Positions 20,946 through 55,258 of a DNA stretch of 64,000 nucleotides are shown here, piece after piece (the first letter of the stretch is position 1; every line of letters begins with the position of its first letter). Source of the stretch: an uncultured Alphaproteobacteria bacterium (GTDB lineage Bacteria; Pseudomonadota; Alphaproteobacteria; CAAGCB01; CAG-977); assembly GCA_944392845.1 (NCBI GenBank), contig CALXYE010000132.1:725-64724 (forward strand), written 5' to 3'. The translations under genes and the position numbers were made by a program. Below the pieces are notes generated by a model. That model saw nothing but the letters and a program-made list of their open reading frames with translations, was not told the DNA's origin and made no database searches.

Positions 20946-23900
20946 TTACAGAAATTCCGTTATTTCCGTCAGTCTTGTTTCTTCCGTCCAGATCAGGAAC
21001 GAGCGGATCTTTTTGTCGGGCCAGATCTTTTTTAAAACGTCCGCGTAGGCTCGCGCTTGGGCAAGGTAGGGTTCGGGCGTTTCGGCGGCGCTTTTCGGGA
21101 CGGCGCGGTTGCTTTTGTAATCGGCGGCCAAAACTTCCGTTTCCGTGACGGCCAGACGGTCGATTCTGCCGCTGACGATTCTGCCGTTTGCCAATCCCGA
21201 AACGGGGACTTCGGCCAATGAATCCGCGGAAAATAAGAAACTAAACTCGGGATGCTCCAAAATGTTCATGACGTCGGAAACAATTTTTGAACGTTCCGCC
21301 GCCGTTGCGTCGGGCATCCTTTTTTCCGTCAGTCGTTTCGCTGCCGTTCTGCGTTCTGAAAGCATGACAAAAGGCAGGGTTTCAAGTAAAGTGTGAATCA
21401 TCAAGCCGCGCTTGACGGCTTTTTCCCTGTCCGGCATTAACGGGGACAGAAAGGACGGGTCTTCATCGTCGGGGCGGGACGGAGCCAAGGGTTTGGGCGG
21501 GATCGGTTCGTCCGGCGCGGGACGGAACAAACAGGCGGGAATTTCTTTTTCAGGCAGAGTTGCAGAAACGTTTTCTGAAGTTTTTTCCGCGGCCGTTTGG
21601 GGGGATTCTATCCTTAAAACGGGTTCGTCAAACATCGGATCATTGACCTCTGTCGCGGCATAAACCGTTTTATCGCCGTCGTTTTCAAGAATCAGGGACG
21701 ACCTGACCATATCGTACCAATTTCCCGCGGGCGGTTTGTTCTTGCCGTCCCAGCCGCACAGATAAAGCCTGTCCGCCGCGCGGGTCAGAGCGACGTAAAG
21801 CAGGCGGTTATATTCCTCTTTTTCTTTCGCGTTCAGCTCATCCGTCGTTTTTTGCGCTTCGGCGTTTCGGAAGGGGGCTTTCGGCACCCAAACGGGAACG
21901 TTTTTGCCGTTCAGTATGAAAAACGACGGCGAATGTTTTTTGTATTGCCGCGTATCGGGCAAAAAGACGACGGGAGCCTGCAAGCCTTTTGAAGCGTGGA
22001 CGGTCATGATTCTGACCGCGTCGAAATTCTTTTGGTCGGGATCGCGCTTGATTTCGATTTCGTTTTTACGCAGGTATTTCAGGAAATTCTGCAAAGACGG
22101 CGCTTCGGTTTCGTCGCGGTTCAAGGCCAGCGACAGGAATTCATCCAAGGCGTCCGCCGCCTGATACCCCAAACGGGACAGAAAGGCCTTCTTTTTGCCG
22201 CAGGCGCCCAAAACGTAAGAATAAAGTTCGAACGGGCGCATTTTGTCCGCGCGATTTAAAAGATCGCTTAAAAAAACGTAGGCTTTGCCCAAAGCCGTTT
22301 CGGGCTCGCCCTTATATGCGGCCAGCCGCGTTAAAAGCGTTTGATTTTTTCTGTCGTAAGCCAGCTTGAACAGATCGTCTTCGGACACGTTGCACAGCGG
22401 AGAGCGCAAAACGGTCGCCAAAGCCAGATCGTTTTCGGGCAGCAGGAGAAAATCGCCCAATACCGCCAAATCCTTTACGGCGATATGGGACGTTATTTTT
22501 AAACGGTCAACGCCCGATACGGGGATGTTCAGGGCTTTTAAGGCGCGGGAAAGTTCTTCAACGAACGCGTTGCGGCGGCGCACCAGAATTAAAACGTCGC
22601 CCGCGCGTATCGGACGTCCTAATGAAGGCAGGCGTTCCTTGGCGTTTATCATGGCGGCGATTTTTTTCGCGATCTTTTCCGCCAATCGCGTCGAAGCGTT
22701 TTTGACGACGATCTGCTCAACGGGCTTCGTATAGATTTCCGGCGTATCGCCTTCCGCCGCTTTTTCGGGCGGCCAGATCTCGATCAGTCCCGCCTGTCCC
22801 TTTCGTCGGGACAGATGCGTCGCGTCTTCTCCGTCGTTCAGGACGCCGCGCGCGGCTTCGGGATTTTTAAGCGTGCGGTTGACTAATTCAATAACGGCGG
22901 GCGTCGAGCGGAAAGAAATGTACATCGGCACGTCATGCCATTTTTTACCCGCGTCTTCGGCTTTTTTTCGGAAAAAGGCGCGCATCCGTTCAAATTCGTC
23001 GGGGTCGGCGCCCTGAAAACTGTAGATGGATTGTTTTTTATCGCCGACGGCAAATATCGTTCTGTCCGATCGGCGCGCACCGTCGCCCGCGAAAAATTCT
23101 TCGGCCAAAGCGCGCACGACGGCCCATTGGTCGGGGCTGGTATCCTGGGCTTCGTCAACCAAAATATGGTCAATGCCGCCGTCCAGCTTGAACAGTACCC
23201 ATGCCGCCGCGCCCGATTTTTCCAACAGACGCCGCGCCGCCGCGATCAGGTCGTCGTAATCCGCGACCGAGCGTTCGTTTTTCAATTCGGCGTAACGGCG
23301 CATGACCGCGATGCCGATCCTGACCAGAGCCAGCGACGCCTTTAAAAGGGTCGCGCTTTTCAGGGCGTCGCAAAATGCCAGAACGCGCGCCGCTTCTTCG
23401 CGCATCGTGTCTTCGGCGGCTTCCGTCCCCTTATGCGTCAATCCGTCCCGAATTTTTGAAAAATCGGCCGTTAAAAAACAACGCGCGTATTTGCGCCAGT
23501 TTTCCTTGCGTTTGCTTTCGTTCGCGTTAAGGAATTCTTCGATATTCATGGCGTTTTTTTTGTCGGTGACGCCCGTTCCCGCCGCCAGAATTGCGGCAGC
23601 GGTTCTCATCGCATTTTCCCGCGACGCGTCAAGGCGGCAGAAATCCGCCGTCAGACTTTCTTCCGAAGCGTCTTCGGGAAGGCCGAAGGCTTTCGCGTAT
23701 TCCCGTTTCAGGGCTTCTTCCGTCGGGCAGCGCCGCGCCAATTCTTCCGTTTCGCGCAAGTGAAAAGTCATGTCTTTTAAAACGCTTGCGAATCCGTCTT
23801 CGGTCGTCATCGCCGAAACGGTATCAAGGGGTTCGGCAAATTCGGGGCGGCTCAACACGTCTTCTTCGGCGCGTTCGATCAGTTCGGAAGCGCCCTGTTC

Positions 23901-24341
23901 GTCCAAAACGTCGAATTGCGGCGAAACGCCCGCCTCTACGGGAAATCGTTTAAGTAAAGACTGGCAAAATCCGTGAATCGTCATAATGTTCATGCCGCCG
24001 GGGGCATCCAGCAGGCGGGCGAACAGGCGTTTGGCTTTTTCTGTTGTTTTCGCGTCGGGCGTTTTGCCCGACAAAGCGGTTAAGTCGGCTTCAAGCGCGC
24101 TTTCTTCGGCGGTTGCCCATCTTGCCAGAATTTCCGTTATGCGATTGGCCATTTCCGCCGCCGCCGTGCGCGTAAAGGTCAGGCAAAGTATCTTTTCGGG
24201 CGGCGTTCCGTCAAGCAACAGGTTTAACACGCGGTCGGACAAAACTTTCGTTTTACCCGATCCTGCCGAGGCCGCAACCCATGCCGAAGCGTCGGGAGCC
24301 GCCGCCGTCCTTTGAAGTTCGTTCGGATCGTTCGCGTTCAT
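20946..24341 (-). CDS. addA: Double-strand break repair helicase AddA (UvrD-like helicase plus C-terminal PD-(D/E)xK nuclease)
   Basis: Walker A GSGKTKVL, UvrD/Rep helicase motifs, and a C-terminal nuclease domain. Start placed at the ATG forming an ATGA overlap with the addB stop. Confidence 0.9.
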   Translation of the reverse strand: MNANDPNELQRTAAAPDASAWVAASAGSGKTKVLSDRVLNLLLDGTPPEKILCLTFTRTAAAEMANRITEILARWATAEESALEADLTALSGKTPDAKTTEKAKRLFARLLDAPGGMNIMTIHGFCQSLLKRFPVEAGVSPQFDVLDEQGASELIERAEEDVLSRPEFAEPLDTVSAMTTEDGFASVLKDMTFHLRETEELARRCPTEEALKREYAKAFGLPEDASEESLTADFCRLDASRENAMRTAAAILAAGTGVTDKKNAMNIEEFLNANESKRKENWRKYARCFLTADFSKIRDGLTHKGTEAAEDTMREEAARVLAFCDALKSATLLKASLALVRIGIAVMRRYAELKNERSVADYDDLIAAARRLLEKSGAAAWVLFKLDGGIDHILVDEAQDTSPDQWAVVRALAEEFFAGDGARRSDRTIFAVGDKKQSIYSFQGADPDEFERMRAFFRKKAEDAGKKWHDVPMYISFRSTPAVIELVNRTLKNPEAARGVLNDGEDATHLSRRKGQAGLIEIWPPEKAAEGDTPEIYTKPVEQIVVKNASTRLAEKIAKKIAAMINAKERLPSLGRPIRAGDVLILVRRRNAFVEELSRALKALNIPVSGVDRLKITSHIAVKDLAVLGDFLLLPENDLALATVLRSPLCNVSEDDLFKLAYDRKNQTLLTRLAAYKGEPETALGKAYVFLSDLLNRADKMRPFELYSYVLGACGKKKAFLSRLGYQAADALDEFLSLALNRDETEAPSLQNFLKYLRKNEIEIKRDPDQKNFDAVRIMTVHASKGLQAPVVFLPDTRQYKKHSPSFFILNGKNVPVWVPKAPFRNAEAQKTTDELNAKEKEEYNRLLYVALTRAADRLYLCGWDGKNKPPAGNWYDMVRSSLILENDGDKTVYAATEVNDPMFDEPVLRIESPQTAAEKTSENVSATLPEKEIPACLFRPAPDEPIPPKPLAPSRPDDEDPSFLSPLMPDREKAVKRGLMIHTLLETLPFVMLSERRTAAKRLTEKRMPDATAAERSKIVSDVMNILEHPEFSFLFSADSLAEVPVSGLANGRIVSGRIDRLAVTETEVLAADYKSNRAVPKSAAETPEPYLAQARAYADVLKKIWPDKKIRSFLIWTEETRLTEITEFL

Positions 24342-27181
24342 TCGTTGTCCTCCGCGTCCTCGGACGTTTTGACGACGCTCCATTCCGCCGTGCGCGCCAA
24401 ATGGTCGTAATCGGTGTATTTCAGGCTGAAAGCGGGATTGGGCGTCGCCAGATAAGGCGTTTCTTCGGAATCGAATTTTGCAACCAATTCCTTTAAATTG
24501 TCGGCGATGCGCTCTATTTTTTCTTCGGGTTCGGGCAACTGCTTTGTTTCGCCGCCGTCTTCCGCGCCGCGCAGGCGCCAGTATTCCAAAGCGACCCCTT
24601 TTTCGGGAACGGGAACGTCCTTAAAGCCGCCGCGGAGCAGGATGTGCGCTTCTAAGGGCAACTGCGGCGCATAGCCGGCGTCAATCGTCTTTTTTGAGGG
24701 GAGAATACCCGTTTTATAATCCAAAACGGCGGCGGAACCGTCTTTGAGCAAATCGATACGGTCGGCGCGGCCGAACAGTTCAAATTCGCCCGCGGGGGCG
24801 TCAAATCTGACGCTGCCGTCGCATTCGCAAAGGATATGCCTGATGTTGCCGATGCGTTGCCGCTGTTGCCCGACGAACCATAACAGGGCGCGGCGGATGC
24901 GCGGATGCCAGAACGCGGCGGCTTTGACGGGAAAATTTAGTGTTCGGATCAGCCGTTCGCCGATGTCCGAAATGATTTTTTCGGCATCGTCGGGCAGGGA
25001 AGACGGATAAAGCGAACAAAACGTTTCCGCCGCTTTGTGCAACAAGTCGCCGACGTCGGCGGGGGTCGGCGCTTCTTCAATGTCGTCCAAGGGCTTTAAG
25101 TTCAGGATGTAACGGGCATAGATCGAATACGGATCGCGCATCCACGTTTCAATCCGCGTAACGGACAATCGGCGCGGACGGGCGGAAACGGGAGGCTTCG
25201 GCGCGGGCGGCGCGATCGTTTCGAACTTTTCGGGGGCATCGAAGCGTTCCGCCCATTTGTTCCATTCGCCGCCGTTCATCGAAAGGTTTGACGACGACAG
25301 CACGGCGTCCAGCCGTCTCAGCCAGCGCGACGGAACCGTCGGCGTTCCGCCGTCTTTCAGCGCGCGGGTAATGATAACGTTCGGCGCGCAAAAGGCTTGG
25401 GCGAAGTCATGAGCGGCCAGCCCGATCTTTCTTTCCAAAGGAGGCAATCCGCATTCCCGACGCATCGGACGGCTCAGCCACGGGTCTGCGGGGGGCGTTT
25501 GGGGCCATGTGCCTTCGTTTAACCCGCCCAAGATTAATACGTCGGGACGGATCAGGCGCGCCTCCATGGATCCCAGGATGTCAATGCGCGGATGCATGCC
25601 GTATTTTAAACGGACCGGCACCGAGGACATAAAGGAATTGATCAGGCCGGCGTATTCAAAGGCGGAAAGCGGTTCGGCGATTTCCGATTCTTCTTTGAGG
25701 CCGTTGAACAAAGATACGGCGACTTCGCCCGCTTCAGCCTTCCACAGGCGTTCGGCTCCCGTCCTGTCCGCGCTTTGCGCCAGCGTTTCCGCCGCTTTCA
25801 AATGTGCGTTGAGCCACTCCGCAAGCGGGCGTTTTTCGGCGGATTGCATCAGCGACGTCAGTTCGCCCAGCGCCTTTTCAAGCGTTTCGGCGAGGGCGGC
25901 CGCATCGGGATCGTCGTTTGCCGATACTTTCAATCCGTCAAAGCCGTCGCCCGTCTGTTTGCCGCGCAGAGAAGAGATTTCCAACTTGCGGACAAGGGTT
26001 CTGAATTCGCCCTGAGGCTTTCCGCCCGTTGCCAAAGGATGTTTCAGACAGGCAAGCAGGGAATAAGGGGAAACGTTGTCCGCCGCCGCCTGCAATACCA
26101 AAGACAGATACGTTCCGAGAGGCGTTTTTGATAAAGGCGTCCCCGCCGAATCGTCCAAAACGACGTTCCAGCGCGCCATTTCCGCAATCACCCGCCGTGC
26201 GAGCGTTCTGTCGGGCGTGATCAGGGCTGCGGTTTTTCCCGCCGTTTCCAGCGTGTCGCGCAGGATCAGGGCGATTGTCAGAGCTTCGTCCCGCACCGTC
26301 GGGCAATCCAAACGCATTACGCCTTCCAACGCCGATTTATCGAACGGTTTTATTTTTCGCCACGCATCCGACGTTTCGGCGGGACGCATCGCTTCGCAAA
26401 TCAGGCGCAGGCGCTCGGACGGCGTTTTTCCTTCTTCCCTGCCGAAGGGTTTGACGTCTTTGCGCGTTATGCCCATTTTTTTCAGCAGGTTCATCATATT
26501 GTACTGCGGATGCGTCGCTTCCAGTCCTTTTAAAGCCTCGTCGTCGGAGATCAGATCAAGTCCGGGCAGTATGACGCGACCGTTCGGCAAAGAAGCGACG
26601 GCGTTCAGAAAATCCGCCGTTGCGGGTTGCGACCCCGTTGATCCCGCGGCGATCACGGGATAGGGCGGCGGCGTTTCGAGCCACAGATCGGCTTGAGCCT
26701 TAAAAAGGCGGGACTGGCGGTCGGCGGGGTCAATAAATCCTTGTTCTTTTAAGATCTGCGGCCAGTAAAAGGTTACCGTTTCCAAAAATTTCAGGATGTC
26801 CTGCCAATGTTCGGCAAATTCGTCGGGAACAAGGCTTTCCAAGCGTTCGAAAGGCATTCGTTCAATATAGGACTGGTCCAAAAAAGCGCAGAGGGCTTCC
26901 GCCAGCCGAAGCGCTTTTTCGGCGCTCAGATTTTTCGCTTCCGGATTTCTGCGGATCAGGCGCATTAAAAGCAGTTTTCGGCGCAAAGGAGAAATCGCGG
27001 GCGGTATGTCGTCATCTTTTCCCGCCAAAATCAGCGACGTTTCCGTTTCTTCGCCGTCAATGCCGCCGAAAGGAATCAGGCGGGGCAGAAGGACGGGTTT
27101 GCCGCCGCTTTGGCGCAAAAAAGCGTCCTGAACGGTTTTGCAGGCGCGGCGGGTCGGCAAAAAAACGGCGTATTTAGCCAA
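24338..27181 (-). CDS. addB: Double-strand break repair protein AddB (alphaproteobacterial type)
   Basis: 947 aa immediately upstream of and translationally coupled to addA. Inactivated-helicase-like N-terminus and C-terminal RecB-like nuclease region. Confidence 0.85.
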   Translation of the reverse strand: MAKYAVFLPTRRACKTVQDAFLRQSGGKPVLLPRLIPFGGIDGEETETSLILAGKDDDIPPAISPLRRKLLLMRLIRRNPEAKNLSAEKALRLAEALCAFLDQSYIERMPFERLESLVPDEFAEHWQDILKFLETVTFYWPQILKEQGFIDPADRQSRLFKAQADLWLETPPPYPVIAAGSTGSQPATADFLNAVASLPNGRVILPGLDLISDDEALKGLEATHPQYNMMNLLKKMGITRKDVKPFGREEGKTPSERLRLICEAMRPAETSDAWRKIKPFDKSALEGVMRLDCPTVRDEALTIALILRDTLETAGKTAALITPDRTLARRVIAEMARWNVVLDDSAGTPLSKTPLGTYLSLVLQAAADNVSPYSLLACLKHPLATGGKPQGEFRTLVRKLEISSLRGKQTGDGFDGLKVSANDDPDAAALAETLEKALGELTSLMQSAEKRPLAEWLNAHLKAAETLAQSADRTGAERLWKAEAGEVAVSLFNGLKEESEIAEPLSAFEYAGLINSFMSSVPVRLKYGMHPRIDILGSMEARLIRPDVLILGGLNEGTWPQTPPADPWLSRPMRRECGLPPLERKIGLAAHDFAQAFCAPNVIITRALKDGGTPTVPSRWLRRLDAVLSSSNLSMNGGEWNKWAERFDAPEKFETIAPPAPKPPVSARPRRLSVTRIETWMRDPYSIYARYILNLKPLDDIEEAPTPADVGDLLHKAAETFCSLYPSSLPDDAEKIISDIGERLIRTLNFPVKAAAFWHPRIRRALLWFVGQQRQRIGNIRHILCECDGSVRFDAPAGEFELFGRADRIDLLKDGSAAVLDYKTGILPSKKTIDAGYAPQLPLEAHILLRGGFKDVPVPEKGVALEYWRLRGAEDGGETKQLPEPEEKIERIADNLKELVAKFDSEETPYLATPNPAFSLKYTDYDHLARTAEWSVVKTSEDAEDNE

Positions 27182-29475: not shown

Positions 29476-30426
29476 CTAGAAAACATCAAAGATGCTTTTC
29501 CCTTTTTTCTTCGGAACGGGAGGAGGGTCGGGAATCTTGACGTTTTGGCGTTCCTCCGCCATTTGCCGTTGCTGGGCGGCCCATTCCCACGGCATATAAA
29601 ACTGCCCCGCCCACAGGCCGCTTTGCTTTTGCCGTGCGGTGTCTTCATAGGGGATGTAAACGGGCGAAACGTCGCGCAAGGCGACGGCCCATCCCGCTTC
29701 GACCAAAACGGCTCCCAGATCGTACCGGTCAATGGAGCAACGGGCCGAAACGGCGCCTTGAGCCGATACCGTCATGACGGTACAGGTTACCTCGTCGCTG
29801 CCTAACAGATCTTTGAGCTTTCGGGCGACCGTATAACCGCAGTTGAACGCCCTGCCGTGGTCGTCCGTACAGGTTTGGTTAATGTCGGGCGCGGCGACGC
29901 CGAAAAGGCGGATCCATTGGTTTCCGATGCGGAAACGGTCGCCGCTGGCGATTGAATTGACGGGCCCCTTGATGACGGGTTGCTGTTGCGGCATCGGTTG
30001 AGCCTGCGGAACGGGTTGCGCCTGTTGGGGCGTCGCGCCGCCCAAGGCTTGAATCATCGGAGCGGCCCGGCTGATCATGCCGTTCGCCGCGCTTTGAGGC
30101 GGCTGTCCCTGAACGGGAAGAGCGGCGGGCTGAACCGTTGTCGCGGGGGGCTCGTTACCTTTGTTCAAAAATTTATTCAGCAGGTCGGAACCGCTGACAA
30201 AATAGAAAATGACGCCGACGATTACGGCCACAATGATGAACGTCGTCAGGCATCCCAATATCCGCCATAATCCCTTTGCCAAGAAGAAAAAGCATACGAC
30301 GGCGACCAACAGTCCCATTCCGCCGATGGCAAAATCGACGCCGTTGTTTTCGTTAAAGCTTAAACTTCCGACGTATGATCCGACCAAACCGACCAACAGA
30401 AGTACGATACGCAACAAAAAGCTCAT
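29476..30426 (-). CDS. Membrane-anchored protein with Pro/Gln-rich linker and C-terminal staphylococcal-nuclease (SNase-like) domain
   Basis: Three N-terminal TM helices, a low-complexity Q/P linker (QPPQSAANG ... QAQPMPQQQP), then a thermonuclease-like fold (RLFGVAAPD ... GRAFNCG ... LVEAGWAV). Confidence 0.6.
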   Translation of the reverse strand: MSFLLRIVLLLVGLVGSYVGSLSFNENNGVDFAIGGMGLLVAVVCFFFLAKGLWRILGCLTTFIIVAVIVGVIFYFVSGSDLLNKFLNKGNEPPATTVQPAALPVQGQPPQSAANGMISRAAPMIQALGGATPQQAQPVPQAQPMPQQQPVIKGPVNSIASGDRFRIGNQWIRLFGVAAPDINQTCTDDHGRAFNCGYTVARKLKDLLGSDEVTCTVMTVSAQGAVSARCSIDRYDLGAVLVEAGWAVALRDVSPVYIPYEDTARQKQSGLWAGQFYMPWEWAAQQRQMAEERQNVKIPDPPPVPKKKGKSIFDVF

Positions 30427-30519: not shown

Positions 30520-31290
30520 TTAACGCGTATTTTCGTCCCGTTTGCGGATCTGCATTTGCATCCGCGCCCGTTTTACGCGTTCCGCCTTCATGGCCTGTCT
30601 GCCGGAATCATGTTCCCGTCTTTGTGCAGGTGAGCTATATTTACCCGTCCCGCGCAGACGGTCAATATTTATTTTCTTTCCGTCCAACGTAACGACCAAG
30701 TCTTTTTTGGCTTCGCGGTTTTTCAGATTGGCTTTGACCTTCGCGCGCCCCTGTTTGCGCAGGCGGTCAAGCTTTGCTTGCAACAGGCGGTCGGTCTTGC
30801 GTTCGCTGGGGCGTCTGGTGCGCCGTTTCCTTTTTGATTTGCCCAGGACCTCCAAATCTTTTTTCTTGCCTTTCAGCGGGTTTCTTTTTCCGACCAATGT
30901 CCGCGACATTTGAGCGCGTTCCAATTCGCTGTAAGACAGGGCGCCGTCGATTCCCAAGCGTTTTTCCTGATTCAATATGTTGTTTCTGATGTCCAGACCC
31001 TCGCGAATCTGGCGCTCGACGGTCAGGCGTTCCTGTTCCAACGATTTCTTGGAAGCATTTTCGCTTTCCCTATTTATATCGCGGTTGATTTTTTCGGCAT
31101 GGGCGCGTTCTTCCGCGCGGCGGGCCGCCTTTTCGTCGCGGTACAAAACCGCGTCGCTGCGCGCCGTGTTGTCAAAGACGCCGCCCTCCTGCCGCTTACG
31201 CAGAGCGGCGGGATTGATCCGCTTTTGGATCCATCCCATTTCTTCGCGGGAAAAATCGATGCGAGGACGTTTTCTTTGATTGTTTTCCAT
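30520..31290 (-). CDS. Highly charged Lys/Arg/Glu-rich coiled-coil protein, unknown function
   Basis: 256 aa, about 40% charged residues, with basic clusters (KGKKKD, KSKRKRRTRRPSERK). No TM segment or signal peptide. Confidence 0.5.
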   Translation of the reverse strand: MENNQRKRPRIDFSREEMGWIQKRINPAALRKRQEGGVFDNTARSDAVLYRDEKAARRAEERAHAEKINRDINRESENASKKSLEQERLTVERQIREGLDIRNNILNQEKRLGIDGALSYSELERAQMSRTLVGKRNPLKGKKKDLEVLGKSKRKRRTRRPSERKTDRLLQAKLDRLRKQGRAKVKANLKNREAKKDLVVTLDGKKINIDRLRGTGKYSSPAQRREHDSGRQAMKAERVKRARMQMQIRKRDENTR

Positions 31291-36911: not shown

Positions 36912-36979
36912 TTCCCGTTAAGGCGTTTGGTACAACTCTTGACAGATACATTCTTATGGTCCGATACGGAGTTGTGAGG

Positions 36980-37006
36980 GTGGGCTGAAAAGCCCGCTTT
37001 TTTTTA
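36980..37006 (+). terminator. Rho-independent terminator (GUGGGCU-GAAA-AGCCCGC + U8)
   Basis: 7-bp stem with a GAAA tetraloop and a U-tract, downstream of the trmB/STAS operon. Confidence 0.7.
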
Positions 37007-37028
37007 TACCGAAGGCAGGAGAAAAGCG

Positions 37029-37523
37029 TTGACGCTGAACGAAAAATTGAATGCTTTGTTTGAACCCGTGTTCAACGGGATGGGATATGATATCGTTCGT
37101 TTGATGCTCAGCGGCGGCGAAAAGCGCAAAACTTTGCAGGTCATGGCGGAACGCAGGGACGGAAAGCCGATGACGGTTGAGGACTGCGCCGATCTGAGCC
37201 GAGCGATTTCTCCGATTTTGGACGAAGAAGATCCGATTGAAGGCAATTATTCCTTGGAGGTCAGCTCTCCCGGGCTTGACCGCCCTTTGGTGAAACTTGC
37301 CGATTTTGAAAGATTCAAAGGTTTTGAAGCCAAAGTCGAAACCTCCGTTCTTTTGAACGGGCGCAAACGGTTTTCCGGGCGCTTGCGGGGAACGGACGGA
37401 GAAGACGTCGTTTTGGCGTTTGAAGGCGAAGACATAAAAATTCCTTTCGCCGACATTGCCAAGGCGAAACTTTTGCTGACGGACGAGCTGATCGAGGCTT
37501 TCGCGCCGTCGGACGACGAATAA
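37029..37523 (+). CDS. rimP: Ribosome maturation factor RimP
   Basis: TTG start. SSPGLDRPL motif. Conserved position upstream of nusA. Confidence 0.85.
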   Translation: MTLNEKLNALFEPVFNGMGYDIVRLMLSGGEKRKTLQVMAERRDGKPMTVEDCADLSRAISPILDEEDPIEGNYSLEVSSPGLDRPLVKLADFERFKGFEAKVETSVLLNGRKRFSGRLRGTDGEDVVLAFEGEDIKIPFADIAKAKLLLTDELIEAFAPSDDE

Positions 37524-37545
37524 TTTGTTTAAGGAAAGACTGAAC

Positions 37546-39081
37546 ATGGAACATACGGCAGCTTTACCGCGTCCCGAACTTTTGCAGGTCGCCGATGCGG
37601 TCGCCCGCGACAAGGGCATTGAAAAAGACGAAGTCCTGACGGCGATGGAATTCGCCATCCAAAAGGCCGGGCGTTCGAAATACGGCCAGGAACACGATAT
37701 CCGCGCGACGATTGACCGCAAAACGGGCGAAATTCGTTTGGCGCGTTACGTCGAGGTCGTCGAAGGCCCCGAAAACGTCGAAAACGAAGCGGCCCAGATC
37801 ATTTTGGCGGACGCCGTCAAAAAAGACCCGTCCCTGAAGGTCGGCGACTTTATCATTGATCCCCTGCCTCCGATTGATGATTTCGGGCGCATTGCGGCCC
37901 AGACGGCAAAACAGGTTATCGTTCAGAAGGTTCGCGACGCCGAACGCCTGCGCCAGTATAACGAATACAAGGATCGCGTCGGCGAGATCTGCAACGGCAT
38001 CGTCAAACGCGTCGAAGGCGGTAACGTCATCGTTGACATGGGCCGCGCCGAGGCTCTGTTGCGTCGCGACGAATTGATTCCCCGCGAAATATTCCATAAC
38101 GGCGACCGCATCCGCGCTTATATTATGGACGTCCGTCAGGAACCCCGCGGCCCGCAGATCTTCCTGTCCCGCACGCATCCCCAGTTTATGGCGAAGCTGT
38201 TCGCTCAGGAAGTTCCCGAAATATATGACGGCGTGATCGAGGTCAAGGCCGTTGCCCGCGATCCCGGTTCCCGCGCAAAGATGGCGGTTACGGCGACGGA
38301 TTCTTCCATTGATCCCGTCGGCGCGTGCGTCGGCATGCGCGGCGTGCGCGTTCAGGCCGTCGTAACCGAGTTGCAGGGCGAAAAAGTTGACATTATCCAA
38401 TGGTCTCCCGACGCGGCGACGTTCATTGTCAACGCTTTGGCGCCCGCCGAAGTCGTCAAGGTCGTTCTGGACGAGGAAGCTCACCGCATTGAAGTCGTCG
38501 TTCCCGACGACCAGCTGTCTTTGGCGATCGGCCGCCGCGGTCAGAACGTCCGTCTGGCTTCTCAGCTGACGGGCTGGTACATTGATATTCTGACGGAGGC
38601 CGAAGAATCCGAACGCCGCCAGAGCGAAGCCAAAGTCCGTACCCGGATGTTTATGGACGCTTTGGACGTCGACGATATGATCGCGCATCTGTTGGTCGCC
38701 GAAGGCTTTACTTCCGTTGAGGAAGTCGCTTTCGTTCCCACGGAGGACATCTCTTCCATTGAAGGGTTTGACGAAGATTTGGCGGCGGAGCTGCAAAACC
38801 GCGCCAAGGCATTCGTTGAAAAGCAAAACGCCGAATTCGCCGTTAAGAGCAAAGAACTCGGCGTTGACGAAAGCCTGATCAATTTTGAAGGGCTGACGCA
38901 GGCAATGATCGTCAAGCTGGCGGAAAAAGGCATCAAGACGCTGGATGATTTCGCCGATCTGGCGAACGACGAGCTGTTGGACATTCTGGGCGAAGACACG
39001 ATGACCGCCCACGATGCCGACGCATTGATCATGAAGGCGCGGGAGCACTGGTTTGACGAAGACGGCAACCCCAAAGCCTGA
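37546..39081 (+). CDS. nusA: Transcription termination/antitermination factor NusA
   Basis: S1 and KH domains and C-terminal acidic repeats. Start set at the ATG preceded by AAGGAAAG. Confidence 0.95.
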   Translation: MEHTAALPRPELLQVADAVARDKGIEKDEVLTAMEFAIQKAGRSKYGQEHDIRATIDRKTGEIRLARYVEVVEGPENVENEAAQIILADAVKKDPSLKVGDFIIDPLPPIDDFGRIAAQTAKQVIVQKVRDAERLRQYNEYKDRVGEICNGIVKRVEGGNVIVDMGRAEALLRRDELIPREIFHNGDRIRAYIMDVRQEPRGPQIFLSRTHPQFMAKLFAQEVPEIYDGVIEVKAVARDPGSRAKMAVTATDSSIDPVGACVGMRGVRVQAVVTELQGEKVDIIQWSPDAATFIVNALAPAEVVKVVLDEEAHRIEVVVPDDQLSLAIGRRGQNVRLASQLTGWYIDILTEAEESERRQSEAKVRTRMFMDALDVDDMIAHLLVAEGFTSVEEVAFVPTEDISSIEGFDEDLAAELQNRAKAFVEKQNAEFAVKSKELGVDESLINFEGLTQAMIVKLAEKGIKTLDDFADLANDELLDILGEDTMTAHDADALIMKAREHWFDEDGNPKA

Positions 39082-39715
39082 CTTTGAAAACGGGGAGGCT
39101 TCCGCAATCTCGGAAGCCTCTTTGAAGGCGGATAAGGCGGAAACGGTCAGGCGCTGCATCGTTTCGGGAAAAACCTTTCCGAAACGGGAGCTGATCCGTT
39201 TTTGCGTATCTCCCGACCGCGAGCTTGTCCCCGATTTGGCAAACAAACTTCCCGGAAGGGGAATATGGGTGCGCGCGGACGCCGACGCGGTGCAAACCGC
39301 AATGACAAAAGGCTTGTTTGCAAAGGCGGCGGGGAGTAAAGTAACTTACCCGGACGACTTGGTTGAACGGGTGCGGGCGCTTTTCCGACGCCGTTGCGCG
39401 GATTTGCTCGGCGTGGCGAAAAAGGCGGGACTGGTCGTTTCGGGCTTTGAGAAAGTCGCGGACGCCCTGCGAAAGGGTAAACTGGCCTGGTTGTTAGAGG
39501 CCGAGGACGGCGCGGACGACGGCAGGGAAAAGATTCTCCGTTTGGCAAAGGACGTTTCCGTTCTTTACTTTTTGTCAAGCGGGGAAACGGCTCATGCCTT
39601 GGGGCGGGAGCACGGCATCCATACGGGACTGAAGCCCGGCGGCGCAACGGACGCGTTTATCGCCGAAGCAAAGCGGTGTATGGCTTTTGAAAAGAAACGA
39701 ACGTTTAACGATTGA
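39053..39715 (+). CDS. YlxR/DUF448 RNA-binding protein fused to L7Ae-like domain
   Basis: [18 protein letters not shown] ... GRGIWV (DUF448), then an L7Ae-like C-terminus. Start codon uncertain (TTG candidates). Confidence 0.6.
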
Positions 39716-45705: not shown

Positions 45706-45745
45706 GCCGGCGCGCGTTCTCTTGAAAAAGGGGGAGCGCGCCGGC
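45706..45745 (+). promoter_or_regulatory. 10-bp perfect GC stem-loop in the rpsO-pnp intergenic region (rpsO terminator / pnp leader RNase III-type processing stem)
   Basis: GCCGGCGCGC-20nt-GCGCGCCGGC, with no U-tract. The position matches the known autoregulatory pnp leader hairpin. Confidence 0.5.
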
Positions 45746-45831
45746 TAAAAGCATAAATTAGTCAATTTGGTTTGAAAACACATGACAACAGTCCTCCGAA
45801 CGGGTCGGGGGAAGAAGGAGAAAAAGTAAAG

Positions 45832-47976
45832 ATGTCTATGTTTAAGGTATTCCGCAAGGAAATCGAATGGGGCGGACGCCCTCTGTCCGTTGAAACGGGA
45901 AAAATCGGCCGCCAGGCTGATGCTTCCGTGATCGTCCGCTACGGCGAAACCGTCGTTCATTGCGCCGTTTGCGCGGCCAAATCGGTTCCCGAAGGCTCCG
46001 AAGAAGATTTCCTGCCCTTGACGGTCAACTATCAGGAAAAAGCGTATGCGGCCGGCCGCATCCCCGGCGGATTCTTCCGTCGCGAAGGCCGTCCCGCCGA
46101 ACACGAAATTCTGGTTTCCCGCCTGATCGACCGTCCCGTCCGCCCGCTGTTTGCCAAAGGGTATTGCAACGATACGCAGGTTACCTGCACGACGCTCAGC
46201 CATGACATGGAAAACGATCCCGATATCGTCGCCATGATCGCCGCGTCGGCGGCTTTGACTTTGTCGGGGCTGCCCTTCTTGGGTCCCATCGGCGCCGCGC
46301 GCGTCGGCTACAAGGACGGCGAATATCTGCTGAACCCCACGATGGCGGAACGCGAAACGTCTCAGCTGGATCTGGTCGTCGCCGGTACGGCTCAGGGCGT
46401 TTTGATGGTCGAATCCGAAGCGGGCGAACTGACCGAAGAAGTCATGTTGGGCGCCGTTACGTTCGGCCACGAGCAGATGCAGCCGGTGATCGACATGATT
46501 ATCTCGTTGGCGGAAGAATGCGCGAAAGAGCCTTGGGTTCTGCCGGCTCCCGCTCCCGAGCTGCAGATCGTTCATGACAAGTTCATGAAGGATTTCGGCG
46601 ATGAGTTGCGCGCCGCTTATAAAATCACGGATAAACTGGAACGTCAGAACAAGGTCGGAGAAATCCGCGACGCGGCAAAGGCCTCCGTCGCCGATAACGA
46701 AGCCGAAGCCGCCGTTGCCGCCCGCGTTTTCCATGCTTTGGAAGCCGAAATCGTCCGCGGGGCGATTCTGGATACGGGTATCCGCATTGACGGCCGCGAT
46801 ACGAAAACCGTCCGTCCGATTACGGCGGAGGTCGGCGTTCTGCCCCGCGCTCACGGTTCGGCGCTGTTTACCCGCGGCGAAACGCAGGCTCTGGTCGTAA
46901 CGACTTTGGGAACGGAACAGGACGAACAAATCGTGGATGCTCTGACGGGCGAATACCGTCAGCCGTTCATGTTGCACTATAATTTCCCGCCCTATTCCGT
47001 CGGGGAAACGGGACGCATCGGTTCTCCCGGCCGTCGCGAAATCGGACACGGAAAGCTGGCGTGGCGCGCGATTCATCCGATGTTGCCCTCCAAGGAAGAA
47101 TTTCCGTATTCCATCCGCGTCGTTTCCGAAATTATGGAATCGAACGGTTCGTCTTCCATGGCGACGGTTTGCGGTTCCTGCCTGTCTTTGATGGACGCGG
47201 GCGTTCCCATGAAGCATCCCGTCGCGGGTATTGCGATGGGCCTGATTAAGGAAGAAGACGGCCGCTTTGCCGTTTTGACCGATATTCTGGGCGACGAGGA
47301 TCACCTGGGCGATATGGACTTTAAGGTTGCCGGTACGGAAAACGGCGTTACGTCGTTGCAGATGGACATCAAGATCACTTCGATTACGAAAGAGATCATG
47401 GAAATCGCTTTGAAGCAGGCGAAAGAAGGCCGTATGCACATTTTGGGCAAGATGGCCGAAGCTTTGGCCGCGCCGCGCGATGCCGTCAGCGAGAACGCGC
47501 CCCGCATCACGACGATGCAGATCAATAAAGACAAGATCCGCGACGTGATCGGCACGGGCGGCAAAGTTATCCGCGAAATTACGGAACAAACGGGCTGCAA
47601 GATTGACATCGGCGAAGACGGCGTGATCAAGATCGCTTCCTTCTCTCAGGAAGCGGGAGAAGCCGCGCGTCAGTGGATTCTCGGCATCGTTTCCGAACCC
47701 GAGGTCGGCCGCGTCTATGACGGCAAGGTCGTTAAGGTTGTCGAATTCGGCGCCTTTGTGAACTTCCTGGGGGCGAAAGACGGTCTGGTTCATATTTCCG
47801 AAATGGCTCCGCAGCGGATCGCCAAAGTAACGGACGTCGTCAATGAAGGCGACCATGTCAAGGTCAAATGCATCGGCATTGACAACCGCGGCAAGGTCAA
47901 GCTGTCCATGAAGCGCGTCAATCAGGAAACGGGCGAAGATCTGGAAGCTAAAGCGGAAGAACAGGCTGAGGCATAA
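45832..47976 (+). CDS. pnp: Polyribonucleotide nucleotidyltransferase
   Basis: RBS GAAGGAG. Two RNase PH domains plus KH and S1 domains. Confidence 0.95.
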
Positions 47977-47997
47977 TTTCAAAAGGGAGCGATTCTC

Positions 47998-49952: not shown

Positions 49953-50310
49953 GTTTTTTTATCGCTTAAAGAAACATCGAAAAGATCCGAAAGCTCCCTT
50001 TATTTCGTTATTCGTTAAAAGGGGAAGAGGGAATTTAAATCCCCCTCAGACGTTAAAAAGGCGGGTATGTTCCGAAAGTTATTTTCTTAACGTGCCGAAA
50101 TTGTTTTTAAAAATTTTCGGATGCATGCCTTTTCGCGGCGGGTATCCGAATTTTTATACGCTTTTGAAATATAACGACATTTCTTTCTCCTTACTTTTAG
50201 GAAAGTGAAATAAACCGCTTAATAAATCCGATTGCAAAATCTTTCGGTTTTGATAGTGTGTTTAAGGAACGGTATCTGCCGTTCAGGGCGTCAGAAACCC
50301 TTTCAGAGAT

Positions 50311-50471
50311 AGTCGCTTTGCATAAGCGACTTTAAAAATAGTTATGCCGATTTCTGCTCCGTGCGGGCGGATGTCGGCTGAATACGGCTATCCGCCCAAT
50401 AGGTCGAGCCGTATATCTCTGTACGGTTTCTGAACATCCGCCCACCTTATTTTTTAAGGTGGGTTTTGTTT
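50311..50471 (+). promoter_or_regulatory. Candidate cis-regulatory leader RNA with mutually exclusive antiterminator/terminator structures, upstream of the lipoprotein gene
   Basis: Hairpin 50311-50331 (8-bp perfect). GGGCGGAUG (50365-73) can pair with UAUCCGCCC (50389-97) or with CAUCCGCCC (50435-43). The latter overlaps the 5' arm of the terminator CCACCUU-7nt-AAGGUGG + GUUUUGUUU (50442-71). Confidence 0.45.
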
Positions 50472-50499
50472 AACCAAAAAAACAAAAGGACGTTCGGAA

Positions 50500-50910
50500 A
50501 TGAAAAAATTTCTTTTTTCGGCTTTGTTAGCCGTTTCTTTGTCAGCATGCGCATCTTTGACAAGGATGGAAGAAAACCAACTCAGGGAATTGAAAACTTA
50601 CGGTATCAGCGTTGATAAACCGACGGGATATTGGGAAAAACCCGCAAGCCCGTTAGCAGCGGGAATGTTGAACCTTCTGCCCGGGGTCGGGAATTTTTAT
50701 CTGGGAGTGGGCAACGGTTCCGACGGAGCGCAGGTTCTGTACGGATTTTTAAACCTGTTGTTTTGGCCCGCATCCATATTATGGGGGATTCCCGAAGCCG
50801 CGATAGATGCCGGTACGATCAATGAGCGCGAGCTGTTATACTACTACGCTTATGATCCGAACGGCAAACGCGAACTTGAAGAAGCTCGGAAAAAATTCGG
50901 GAAAAAATAA
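50500..50910 (+). CDS. Lipoprotein with TM2-like Gly-rich domain
   Basis: Lipobox LSAC and RBS AAGGA. LLPGVGNFYLGVGNGSDG ... LLFWPASILWGI resembles the TM2 domain. Confidence 0.5.
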   Translation: MKKFLFSALLAVSLSACASLTRMEENQLRELKTYGISVDKPTGYWEKPASPLAAGMLNLLPGVGNFYLGVGNGSDGAQVLYGFLNLLFWPASILWGIPEAAIDAGTINERELLYYYAYDPNGKRELEEARKKFGKK

Positions 50911-51584: not shown

Positions 51585-52034
51585 TTAAACTCCGGTAGAC
51601 CCGAAACCGCCCGCGCCTCTTTGCGTCGCGTCCAAAGCCGAAACTTCCTTCCAATCAACGCGTACGACGGGGGCAATGACCATCTGGGCAATCTTCATGC
51701 CGCGTTTTAAAACGAATATTTTGTTACTTGAGTTATATAAAATGACGGATATTTCTCCGCGATAATCGGCGTCTATCGTACCCGGAGAGTTTAGAACGAA
51801 TACGCCGTCTCTGGCGGCAAGCCCCGATCGGGAACGGATTTGGGCTTCCAGTTCCGCGGGCAGGGATATGGCGAAGCCCGTCGGAATGACTTCGTGTTCG
51901 TGAGGGGCGATTCGCAACGTTGAAGGAATCGCCGCGCAAAGATCCATTCCCGAAGACAGCGGAGTCGCATAAGAGGGGAGCGGAAGTCCGTGGCCGCTTG
52001 GCAGCCGAACGAGGGGGAAAACGGGTCTTTGCAT
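51585..52034 (-). CDS. dut: dUTP diphosphatase
   Basis: SGLAARDGVFVLNSPGTIDADYRGE dUTPase motifs. 149 aa. Confidence 0.9.
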   Translation of the reverse strand: MQRPVFPLVRLPSGHGLPLPSYATPLSSGMDLCAAIPSTLRIAPHEHEVIPTGFAISLPAELEAQIRSRSGLAARDGVFVLNSPGTIDADYRGEISVILYNSSNKIFVLKRGMKIAQMVIAPVVRVDWKEVSALDATQRGAGGFGSTGV

Positions 52035-52141
52035 ATTCGGATTCCTTTCTTTTCTGGCTTTTTGTGCGAATATAGCTTATAACAATATAAGAGAAAATTC
52101 TTAAATAAGTCTTGATCGTCGGAAACGAAGGTTTCGTATTG

Positions 52142-52693
52142 ATGCGGAAATGTTTTTTGGTTTTCTTGATCGCCGGTTTTATGCCTTGCTCCGCGCATTC
52201 GTTCGGATTGACGGCCGATCAGATGTACAGGAACCTTTTAACGACGGAAAACCGCGGCATTTTGCCTTCATATTACGCCCGTTCTCCCAAACGGGAACCC
52301 GAAACACACTTGGTCTTTAAAAAGGTTGAATCCGTTCCCGAAAAGATATGGTCGGAAAAACACGGTACTTTTCCCGATCCGAAAGACGCCGATATTTTTT
52401 CGACGGATCGCGGCGAAGATTGGAAAGAGGTTGTTAAATCGGTCAAAAGCGGACATACGACGCCGTTTGATTTGGAAACGATCCGCCGCCGCAGCGAAGC
52501 CGACGATGCCGAAGCCGTTGAGCTTTTGGCTTGGATGTACGCGACGGGCAAAGGCGTCCGTCAAAACTTAACGAAGTCTTGGACGTATTATTTACAGGCG
52601 GCGCATTTGGGCGTTCCTTCCGCGGCGGATAATGCGCGCGCCGTTTATAAAGCGATGAACGCCGCCCAACGGGCGCAACTTCCCGCCATTTAA
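52142..52693 (+). CDS. Secreted Sel1-like repeat protein
   Basis: Signal peptide, then Sel1/TPR-like repeat (AVELLAWMYATGKGVRQNLTKSWTYYLQAAHLG). Confidence 0.55.
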   Translation: MRKCFLVFLIAGFMPCSAHSFGLTADQMYRNLLTTENRGILPSYYARSPKREPETHLVFKKVESVPEKIWSEKHGTFPDPKDADIFSTDRGEDWKEVVKSVKSGHTTPFDLETIRRRSEADDAEAVELLAWMYATGKGVRQNLTKSWTYYLQAAHLGVPSAADNARAVYKAMNAAQRAQLPAI

Positions 52694-54015
52694 AACAGGA
52701 CGATCGCTGCCGTCAAAAATCCCAAAGCCAACAGGGGGATCAGAACGTTTGCGCCGATTCCCGACGGTCGGGAACGAAAACGATACCCCGCTTCCGCGCG
52801 TTTGATCATTTCGGGAATCAATTTTTTATTTTTGACGAAGTTCGTCATTTTCTTTCCCTGAACGCGGCGGGTCAGAGCATAAGTTTCGGGCATTTCCGCT
52901 CCCTTGTCCAAAAAATCGGCGGGAGAGGAAAATTCGCCCTTCGGTTCGACGCCGATCCATTCTTTGAAACTTTCGGCGGCCTCAAACCACAATCCGCTTT
53001 TAACGTTCAGCGTTTCTTCGGCAAAGGTTTTGAACGAGCTCAAGGAAAAGCGCAGCAAAAAGAACGAAGGCGGCAGAGAAACTCCCGCTTTGCCCAATTC
53101 TTTGAAAACGGTTTCGGCACGGGAGAAGGCATCCGTGTCTTTTCGACGAATGCTTTCCAACGATTTTGTCAGCTCCGACATCGGAAAATACGGCGGCAGC
53201 GTTTTGTTTTTGAATAAAAGTTTCGCGGCTTCAAGGAAGTTTTCCTTTTCAAACGCCGCGATGAAGCCGTTTAAAAAACGCCGCTCCGTCAAGGACAGAA
53301 CAATGAAGCGCGAACATTTTTTTAAGAAAATTTCTCCGTTTTCCGTGAGGAACCATTCGTTCGGATCAAATACGGGAAAAGCGCCGTCGCGAAAAATGCA
53401 AAGCGTCAGAATGTCCGCCAGTGTCCGCGCCGTTTTTTCGCCGGCCCGAAAAAGAAGGCGCAAAGGCGGGAGCGGTTCCAAAACCAGACGGTTTTCTTTC
53501 GTCTTCATCCAATCGGGCGAGGCGATTTGCAGGCGTTCGTCTTCGTAAAACGCATCTTTAAGGCGTTCCAGGGCGGCGCCTTCGAACCTCAGGTCAAAGA
53601 CGGAAGAGGCGAAACGCTCGTAATTTTCGACGAACGAAGAGGCTTCGGTGTTTTTATTCTTTTTATCAAGGCGCCGCGCGACGGCATAAAGCTCTTTCAA
53701 CAAACCGATATGAGCGGCGCCGATTCCGTCGGGCAGTTCCTCCGTCGCCAAAGACGGATCGTTTTCGCGGGGCAGCAAGAAAAACTTTCGCGCCGCGTCG
53801 CAAACGGCGCTTCCGAAAAGTTCGGGAAAAGCGGCGGCGTATTCCGCAAACACGGTTTCCGCAGGAGAAAGCGCTTCAAAAAAGGCAAAAGCCCGCTTGT
53901 CGCTTCCGTTCGTTTCGGAAAGGAAAAAATCAAAACGGCCGCACAAGGCGGCTTCGGCCGCTTTTTTCGCGGCGGGCGAAAGGTTCTTAGAACCGAAAAA
54001 CGAATCGAATGGCAT
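52690..54015 (-). CDS. Tail-anchored hypothetical protein (441 aa, single C-terminal TM helix)
   Basis: Long ORF with coding-like periodicity. No recognisable domain. C-terminal IGANVLIPLLALGFLTAAIVLF. Confidence 0.5.
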   Translation of the reverse strand: MPFDSFFGSKNLSPAAKKAAEAALCGRFDFFLSETNGSDKRAFAFFEALSPAETVFAEYAAAFPELFGSAVCDAARKFFLLPRENDPSLATEELPDGIGAAHIGLLKELYAVARRLDKKNKNTEASSFVENYERFASSVFDLRFEGAALERLKDAFYEDERLQIASPDWMKTKENRLVLEPLPPLRLLFRAGEKTARTLADILTLCIFRDGAFPVFDPNEWFLTENGEIFLKKCSRFIVLSLTERRFLNGFIAAFEKENFLEAAKLLFKNKTLPPYFPMSELTKSLESIRRKDTDAFSRAETVFKELGKAGVSLPPSFFLLRFSLSSFKTFAEETLNVKSGLWFEAAESFKEWIGVEPKGEFSSPADFLDKGAEMPETYALTRRVQGKKMTNFVKNKKLIPEMIKRAEAGYRFRSRPSGIGANVLIPLLALGFLTAAIVLF

Positions 54016-54091
54016 ATAAATTTTCCCGTTTGGAAGTTTATCATAGCATTTTTATGGTGAGAAGCGCCTAAAAATGATGTAAAAACAAAAT

Positions 54092-54475
54092 ATGAAAAAA
54101 ATATGTCCGATATTTTTGTTTTTGGCGTTTTGCGCTTTTTCCTTTGCCGTTCGCGCGGAAAAGGCCGAGTTCGTTTCGGGATTTGAAGACCTGCCCTTAA
54201 TGCCGGGGTTGGTCGAACACGACGACACGGGCGTTTCCTTCGATACGCCGGGGGGCAGAATCATTGAAGCCTATGCCGAAACGTCGCGCCTGTCGGAAAA
54301 GGATATTTTCGCCTTCTACGCCAAAACGCTGCCCCAACTGGGATGGAAGCCGAAAACGAAAAGCGGAACATCCGGCGCGCATGAAAGATACGGCCGCGAC
54401 GGTGAGATTTTGGATATTTCGGTTGAAAACGGATCGCCCGTTATCGTTCGCTTTGAACTGACGACCGAGGGATAA
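54092..54475 (+). CDS. Small secreted protein, unknown function
   Basis: Signal peptide MKKICPIFLFLAFCAFSFAVRA. Lies 16 nt upstream of the crotonase gene (operon). Confidence 0.45.
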   Translation: MKKICPIFLFLAFCAFSFAVRAEKAEFVSGFEDLPLMPGLVEHDDTGVSFDTPGGRIIEAYAETSRLSEKDIFAFYAKTLPQLGWKPKTKSGTSGAHERYGRDGEILDISVENGSPVIVRFELTTEG

Positions 54476-54490
54476 CAGGAGGGGAAAACA

Positions 54491-55258
54491 ATGAGTTTTG
54501 AAACGATCACGGTAGAAACAAACGGTTCCGTCGCCGTTGTCGGGCTGAACAGGCCGTCGTCCATGAACGCCGTTTGCGCGGCGATGTTGTACGATCTGGC
54601 GGAAGCGTTCGGGCAGCTGGATAAGGAAGATACCGTGCGCGCGATCGTTTTGAAGGGCGGCGATTCTTTCTTTGCCGCGGGAACGGATATGTCGGAGTTT
54701 TCCGAAAAGGAAAGCGCCGAATTGGTCGGGGAAGGCCTTTACGGCCGTGCTGCGGAACGCATTGCGTCGTGCCGCAAACCCGTCGTGGCCGCCGTATCGG
54801 GGTATGCTTTCGGCGGCGGTTTGGAGCTTGTTTTGATGAGCGATATCGTCATCGCCGCCGACAACGCGCGTTTCGGATTCCCCGAAATGACTTTGGGCGT
54901 GCTGCCTCAGATGGGCGGCGTATCTTTGCTGGCGGAACGCGTCGGACGCGCCCGCGCGGCGGACATGGTTTTAACGGGACGCCATATTTCCGCCGACGAA
55001 GCGTTGGCTTGCGGCATCGTTTCCAGAATCGCCGATTCCGCCGAGGTCGTTCGCGAAGCTTTGGCCGTTGCGGAACGCGTCGCTTCAATGCCCGCGGCGG
55101 GAGTTATGCTTGCCAAACGCGCCGTTTGCGCCGCTTCGCACGCCGATGCGGCGAAGAACGAGGAAACGCTGGCCCGTTTGTCGCTGATGTCCGCCGACGC
55201 TCGCGAAGGGCTGACGGCTTTGGTCGAAAAACGCGCGCCCCGTTTTAAACATAAGTAG
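54491..55258 (+). CDS. Enoyl-CoA hydratase/isomerase (crotonase) family protein
   Basis: AVSGYAFGGGLELVLMSD oxyanion-hole region. 255 aa. Confidence 0.85.
   Translation: MSFETITVETNGSVAVVGLNRPSSMNAVCAAMLYDLAEAFGQLDKEDTVRAIVLKGGDSFFAAGTDMSEFSEKESAELVGEGLYGRAAERIASCRKPVVAAVSGYAFGGGLELVLMSDIVIAADNARFGFPEMTLGVLPQMGGVSLLAERVGRARAADMVLTGRHISADEALACGIVSRIADSAEVVREALAVAERVASMPAAGVMLAKRAVCAASHADAAKNEETLARLSLMSADAREGLTALVEKRAPRFKHK

Follow-up and report, generated by a model that had tools for sequence, protein, structure and literature searches.

The UbiB/ABC1/COQ8 (ADCK3) family (PF03109, TIGR01982) consists of atypical protein-kinase-like ATPases; it is ancient and tied to human disease, and its molecular job in coenzyme Q (CoQ) biosynthesis is still unresolved. 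Two properties define the family: an ATPase activity that phenols or cardiolipin stimulate, and a requirement in ubiquinone synthesis. COQ8 needs its KxGQ domain for ATPase activity, which parallels function in vivo, and prenylated CoQ intermediates co-purify with the UbiB of E. coli (all from 10.1101/149823). The closest described group of kinase-like proteins without catalytic residues is that of the eukaryotic-type pseudokinases (reviewed in PMC4718504). Here we analyze a 64,000-nucleotide stretch of DNA (the window) from an uncultured alphaproteobacterium (assembly GCA_944392845.1, contig CALXYE010000132.1) and, within it, a gene for a 441-amino-acid protein (52690–54015, minus strand). 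We consider it likely that this gene is a ubiB ortholog turned into a membrane-anchored pseudoenzyme with an ATP-independent role, in a clade of gut alphaproteobacteria known only from metagenomes.

The gene is the middle one of three open reading frames (ORFs; 52112–52693, plus strand; 52690–54015, minus strand; 54092–54475, plus strand) located between dut and a block containing an enoyl-CoA hydratase (ECH) gene, rpsT and dnaA. The original prediction placed the three ORFs correctly, and our analysis agrees with its description of the 441-residue protein: rich in Phe (10.7%) and Lys (7.7%), with no N-terminal signal and with a single hydrophobic segment in Kyte-Doolittle windows above 1.6, at the C-terminus (residues 418–441). 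Its view of the protein as an orphan of no assignable family does not hold. The NCBIfam model TIGR01982 (UbiB) matches residues 102–291 with E=8.7e-9, at a score of 34.4 bits that lies below the curated family cut-off of 487.55. The match to Pfam PF03109 (ABC1) is sub-threshold (E=0.027; 14.0 bits against a cut-off of 22.9), so Pfam alone would leave the protein unassigned. A word-indexed homolog search returned five close relatives with 46–99% identity, all from Logan/ENA assemblies and without precomputed Pfam domains; beyond these, the phmmer matches are genuine PF03109/UbiB proteins alone, at 22–25% identity. A sequence search of the PDB with the family profile gave only a chance match to AcrIIC3 (E=0.1) and no COQ8A. 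NCBIfam, hhalign and fold comparison were required to establish the link to UbiB. In hhalign, the profile of the close relatives matched the profile of intact UbiBs at 98.8% (E=5.9e-17) over 265 columns, spanning from just after β3 to the end of the C-lobe.

A structural model was built with AlphaFold2 from a nine-row alignment that included intact UbiBs. Its mean predicted local distance difference test (pLDDT) score is 68.9, with values of 70–90 over residues 41–350 apart from one dip. The comparison of such a model by Foldseek, which the original prediction had proposed, returned 12 matches at E≤1e-3, all of them UbiB-family structures with E-values of 7e-6 to 4e-4 (entries 7cyr, 7udq, 4ped, 5i35 and 5yk0; proteins MSMEG_1954, COQ8A/ADCK3 and Rv3197). 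Ordinary protein kinases come later, at E>1e-2. The 441-residue protein is a diverged UbiB/ABC1 homolog, for which the profile match and the predicted model point to common descent and the UbiB fold, that is, a kinase-like fold with helical additions.

The genomic position leads to the same family. The original prediction had suggested looking in relatives for coaBC or other core genes at this place, and such genes are indeed there. Two relatives with intact UbiB, L007 (GCA_964344255.1) and L009, have the order gyrB-recF-dnaN-dnaA-rpsT-[ECH-137aa-fpg]-ubiE-ubiB-coaBC-dut, with an SH3_4 gene nearby. In the window, the array is anchored on one side by dut (dUTPase; 51585–52034, minus strand; NF001862, E=4e-56), which belongs to the ancestral ubiB-coaBC-dut array, and on the other by the ECH gene (54491–55258, plus strand; PF00378, E=1e-64), beyond which lie rpsT, dnaA, dnaN, recF and gyrB. 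Gene orientations in L007 and L009 match those in the window, and the 441-residue protein gene occupies the ubiB position; it is the positional ortholog of ubiB. The slot in the window lacks ubiE, fpg and coaBC, and an opposite-strand gene for a Sel1-repeat protein fills the position of coaBC. At this locus, ubiE is also missing from all clade members examined. Distant clade members have the same arrangement, with a middle gene of 370–425 codons whose product is 28–30% identical. The locus thus shows the dismantling of an origin-proximal ubiE-ubiB-coaBC array in gut alphaproteobacteria.

Motifs were compared in a MAFFT alignment of 28 degenerate representatives and 10 intact UbiBs. The 441-residue protein, which is 60–90 residues shorter than intact UbiBs, differs from them in every element of the nucleotide site. 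The stretch at residues 53–68 (ETVFAEYAAAFPELFG; 53812–53859, minus strand) aligns with the KxGQ-bearing helix FIKLGQALSxRPDLxG of intact UbiBs; FIKLGQALS aligns with ETVFAEYAA, and FIKLGQ is replaced by VFAEYA. None of the 28 degenerate representatives has KxGQ, and P64 and G68 are still conserved within the same stretch. The segment that holds the A-rich loop AAASIAQVH and the β3 lysine of VAVK is deleted in the protein and gapped throughout the main degenerate clade. A low-confidence linker of 17 residues (residues 82–98; 53722–53772, minus strand) stands in place of the N-lobe strands β1–β3, which the predicted model lacks (pLDDT 58 at residues 81–90). The catalytic loop HxDxHPGN has become PV-FDPNE (within residues 208–221, FRDGAFPVFDPNEW; 53353–53394, minus strand), and the Mg-binding DFG has become KCS (residues 231–237, LKKCSRF; 53305–53325, minus strand). 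No clade member among the 28 aligned keeps KxGQ, the A-rich loop, the lysine, HxDxHPGN or DFG.

What the protein shares with the UbiB family, besides homology over about 265 columns, the fold found by Foldseek and the genomic position, is a set of residues outside these motifs and the C-terminal anchor. The DxRxEAA helix is retained (residues 140–150, FDLRFEGAALE; 53566–53598, minus strand): within the degenerate clade, D141 is conserved in 100% of members and R143 in 96%, and neither residue varies among intact UbiBs. We take the Glu of this helix to be the αC Glu, by comparison with COQ8A. Also kept are D168-W169..T172, the core R209-D210-G211 just ahead of the dead catalytic loop, and W343. 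The transmembrane anchor (residues 420–441 by Kyte-Doolittle hydropathy; 52693–52758, minus strand) has counterparts in 22 of the 28 degenerate proteins and 9 of the 10 intact UbiBs. Adjoining it is a motif that sets the clade apart from the UbiB family, as does the lack of an adjacent ubiE. This motif (residues 386–416, QGKK...F..[ND]...IPEMIKR..GYRFR; 52768–52860, minus strand) includes F393, present in 100% of the clade, and K389, present in 79%, at a place where most intact UbiBs have a gap.

Two variants of the degenerate proteins were observed. Members of a subclade without the anchor (P0211, encoded at L018 475–1839, and P0214, P0215, P0219 and P0228) contain a remnant of the β3 strand without its lysine; the gene in L018 adjoins gpsA, not the Sel1 gene or dut, and is still divergent from a gene for a small PF27226 protein. 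A GC-rich, partly degenerate UbiB of 369 residues (P0221) keeps the VAVK lysine, with HxDxHPGN replaced by FVTEFSGET and DFG by DLG. In the alignment it looks independent of the main clade, and loss of the UbiB catalytic motifs may have occurred more than once.

The pattern of loss resembles that of the eukaryotic-type pseudokinases, in that the equivalents of the VAIK Lys, the HRD Asp and the DFG Asp have been lost in a protein that stays under purifying selection (the ratio of nonsynonymous to synonymous substitution rates, dN/dS, is 0.18). Such a pattern implies that the protein acts non-catalytically, as a scaffold or by binding a ligand. Unlike those pseudokinases, the 441-residue protein comes from the small-molecule/ATPase branch represented by UbiB, is bacterial and tail-anchored, and has lost, beyond the motifs, part of the N-lobe sheet itself. 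Having lost the segment that binds the nucleotide and every catalytic motif, it is almost certainly unable, as far as sequence can tell, to bind or hydrolyze ATP in the manner of UbiB. Judged by its motifs and by scores below both cut-offs for functional UbiB, the group is a clade of UbiB-derived pseudoenzymes.

The extent of this clade was determined with HMMER, searching all of 1.84 billion representative sequences. The search found 28 proteins at E≤1e-10, most of them full-length (360–470 residues) and a few of them short fragments, followed in the ranking by intact UbiBs of ~500–540 residues. For the comparison between the window and L015, where dS is ~0.6–1.2, dN/dS is 0.18 for the UbiB-like gene (dN 0.21), 0.087 for the Sel1 gene, 0.056 for dnaA, 0.041 for the ECH gene and 0.039 for dut. 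In pairs with finite dS, the values for the UbiB-like gene range from 0.12 to 0.24. With a dN/dS of 0.18, the gene is constrained, and we regard it as a working gene and not a pseudogene.

These data bear directly on the simplest alternative, that the ORF is a functionless remnant of ubiB on its way to decay. In its favor, all catalytic motifs have disappeared, the pathway partner ubiE is missing from the locus, and no gene there evolves faster (its dN is 0.21, while the neighboring genes have 0.03). Against this, uninterrupted ORFs of similar length persist in ~28 clusters at 50% identity, dN/dS stays at 0.12–0.24 where dS is finite, D141, W169, T172, L177 and F393 are invariant or nearly so, and a newly conserved motif adjoins the anchor. 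The position of the gene and the way it ends are also conserved down to 28% identity: the UbiB-like gene and the convergent Sel1 gene both terminate within a palindromic TTAA (52690–52693) that supplies their two stop codons, and the identical overlap is found in L001 and L005 (11326–11329), L011 (8519–8522) and L013 (8528–8531), although the UbiB-like proteins share just 28–50% identity. On the strength of dN/dS and ORF conservation we reject the decaying-pseudogene reading, which retains only an extremely small probability.

Wherever the source of a clade member could be traced, it was a gut-type alphaproteobacterial metagenome assembly. Pipelines have left the gene unannotated, and the members recovered in the homolog search have no source name or precomputed Pfam domain. 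A collection of species-representative genomes yielded two matches, 'Acetobacter sp. CAG:977' and the metagenome-assembled genome (MAG) HGM16795, both of which we take to belong to human-gut MAG collections; a further clade member was recovered from the gut metagenome of a pig. These lineages may belong to the GTDB order RF32. FeFe-hydrogenases and the corresponding maturases are encoded by CAG:977 and by the related gut MAG CAG:239 (PMC4967309), the latter of which was reported to be without any terminal oxidases (PMC6431628). In organisms living anaerobically, the ubiquinone pathway could plausibly be lost. Those window ORFs that were scanned are housekeeping genes or have no Pfam match, with no quinone or respiratory gene among them, a result that is silent on genes outside the window. 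Neither these ORFs of the 64-kb window nor the fetched loci contained an intact ubiB, a ubiE or any other ubi gene. In the literature on quinone metabolism of RF32/CAG-239 and on UbiB pseudokinases, we found nothing describing a degenerate UbiB clade.

Pseudoenzymes often regulate active paralogs. The dead UbiB might accordingly regulate an intact UbiB whose gene lies at another place in the genome, as in a pseudokinase-kinase pair, with quinone synthesis persisting, for example by an O2-independent route. Besides the general precedent, this idea draws on the retention of a helical scaffold that forms interfaces. The gene, though, sits in the ancestral ubiB position and is thus the ortholog and not an extra copy; the scanned window ORFs and the fetched loci yielded neither an intact ubiB nor any further gene of the ubi set, ubiE included; and the lack of terminal oxidases reported for a related gut MAG (PMC6431628) also argues against it. 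We regard a regulatory partnership as unlikely.

In the reading that we favor, a ubiB ortholog converted into a membrane-anchored pseudoenzyme, the array ubiE-ubiB-coaBC, flanked by dut and the dnaA block, was broken up, with ubiE, coaBC and fpg leaving the slot. The descendant of ubiB has shed the β1–β3 nucleotide-binding segment along with KxGQ, the A-rich loop, the lysine, HxDxHPGN and DFG. It still has its helical scaffold with the DxRxEAA helix, as well as the membrane anchor at the C-terminus, and has acquired the conserved motif next to that anchor. The resulting pseudo-UbiB is presumably maintained as a tail-anchored protein of the inner membrane that faces the cytoplasm. Its role would most likely be the binding of polyprenyl or quinone-type lipids or the provision of a scaffold at the membrane surface.

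Several observations weigh against this interpretation. The UbiB-like gene evolves fastest at the locus, with 70% identity where dnaA has 94%, and relaxed constraint on a marginal function would give the same pattern. The template modeling (TM) scores to UbiB structures are 0.35–0.50 for a model of moderate quality (pLDDT 68.9), and the intact UbiBs in the nine-row alignment may bias the predicted fold. The five-member subclade without a membrane anchor indicates that anchoring is not universal.

A bolder extension, which we put forward tentatively and hold to be possible if rather doubtful, is that the UbiB scaffold has an ancestral function independent of ATP and of ubiquinone synthesis, and that strictly anaerobic gut alphaproteobacteria, having discarded all else of the ubiquinone pathway, have long kept this function alone. 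The binding or handling of polyprenyl lipids, or the organization of a membrane site, would be examples of such a function. If so, the clade would be a natural separation-of-function mutant of a family with a debated molecular role. A scaffold and anchor under selection with the nucleotide site gone suggest a non-catalytic activity of the fold, and the clade offers a natural minimal version of UbiB for binding and structural studies.

The two genes that flank the pseudo-UbiB gene were expected by the original prediction to encode secreted proteins, and hydropathy indeed shows an N-terminal hydrophobic, signal-like segment in both products. The suggestion that the trio is specific to the lineage stands for one of them, the Sel1 protein, and fails for the other. 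The 127-residue protein (54092–54475, plus strand) has 254 homologs at E≤1e-3, including proteins of Rhodospirillales, Terasakiella and BAL199, and is 42% identical to the syntenic 137-residue protein of L007, encoded beside intact ubiB. It is a widely conserved exported protein that is ancestral at the locus and not an orphan. About a third of its listed homologs are labeled PF27226 ('AF_1845'). Its gene lies 15 nucleotides upstream of the ECH gene, with which it is probably co-transcribed, given the shortness of the gap. In pairs other than that of the window and L015, its dN/dS is 0.08–0.26. The confident predicted model of the protein is structurally similar to PA1624 (PDB 6td9) and to periplasmic domains of the DcrB/DUF1795 type, with a like α+β fold; the identity is 3–11%, there are no Foldseek matches at E≤1e-3, and function is not transferable. 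The protein has an AxA-type signal peptide and no lipobox, unlike those it was compared with.

The Sel1 gene (52142–52693, plus strand) encodes 183 residues, or 193 residues if an alternative TTG start at 52112 is used; since relatives have 181–183 residues, the ATG at 52142 is the likelier start. The protein matches PF08238 with E=2e-5 and 25.4 bits, below the gathering score of 30.7 bits, and many of its homologs have a precomputed PF08238 match. It has 62 homologs, the few with a source name being from Alphaproteobacteria MAGs, and the arrangement is the same at every homolog locus examined; it is the sole lineage-restricted gene of the three. One clear repeat (AVELLAWMYATGKGVRQNLTKSWTYYLQAAHLG; 52514–52624, plus strand) and a signal peptide are shared with Sel1-like repeat (SLR) proteins. 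Typical SLR proteins have arrays of repeats, whereas here one was detected, with perhaps one more that is partial. The invariant motif FGLTADQMYRN (52202–52234, plus strand), with which the mature protein is predicted to begin, is not an SLR feature.

According to the original prediction, the three genes could form a lineage-specific envelope or host-interaction module, in which the tail-anchored protein works with the two secreted ones. Their adjacency across the clade, the combination of two signal peptides with one membrane anchor, and the restriction of the Sel1 protein to this clade are compatible with such a module. Yet the genes alternate between strands and hence do not form one operon, and they have separate histories, the 127-residue protein gene being ancestral and widespread and the 441-residue protein gene being the old ubiB. 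In L018, a relative of the 127-residue protein gene is paired divergently with the UbiB-like gene without the Sel1 gene or dut. The anchor at the very C-terminus of the chain predicts a cytoplasmic UbiB-like domain, on the opposite side of the membrane from the exported proteins, and features of a secretion system or of effectors are not indicated. A coherent module, unsupported on account of the alternating strands, the different histories and the opposite membrane sides, is therefore very unlikely, and the two small neighbors are ordinary, independent exported proteins. The original prediction had itself held that conservation of all three genes at this locus across the lineage would speak against it, and such conservation is largely what we find.

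The gene order is conserved in the relatives examined and dN/dS is low, and all three genes are therefore real. Recent horizontal acquisition of the trio was considered and rejected as unlikely because the GC content of the genes and that of their third codon positions (GC3) resemble those of neighboring genes. Both intergenic regions between divergent genes are AT-rich: 107 bp between dut and the Sel1 gene (52035–52141; 33% GC) and 76 bp between the UbiB-like and 127-residue protein genes (54016–54091; 29% GC). Promoter and terminator scans of the two regions gave nothing exceeding shuffled expectation, a sigma-70 consensus scan had no match in 54016–54091, and an Rfam scan of the window found one tRNA and nothing else.

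On the other side of dut lies an SH3_4 ORF, whose listed TTG start makes it overlap dut by ~100 nucleotides (51585–51691). Its relatives have 160–162 residues and an overlap with dut of ~4 nucleotides, which suggests that translation actually begins at an internal Met, that of MKFWPFF...; with this start, the gene would encode a signal-peptide protein directly downstream of dut. The interval from the SH3-domain gene to irr (49953–50910 in the window, 11103–13034 in L015, 12960–21209 in L001) differs among relatives. It contains a gene for a putative lipoprotein of 136 residues and ~550 bp of ORF-poor, low-GC (0.41) DNA in the window, a Fic gene in L015, and genes for a relaxase, a resolvase and a 1588-residue type ISP restriction enzyme in L001–L004. 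The interval looks like an insertion hot spot.

Two long ORFs elsewhere in the window (45745–47982, 745 residues, and 37564–39246, 560 residues, both on the minus strand) lie opposite probable pnp (45772–47976, plus strand; identified by synteny with L013) and nusA (37525–39081, plus strand), respectively; rather than genes, both are in all likelihood shadow ORFs. Three further minus-strand ORFs of 255–316 residues (29476–30426, 30520–31290 and 36954–37721) have no Pfam match at E≤1e-6. At 20946–27181 on the minus strand, a gene for a UvrD-like helicase (1145 residues) is followed by one for a PD-(D/E)XK nuclease protein (947 residues), and the two look like a recombination pair of the AddAB type.

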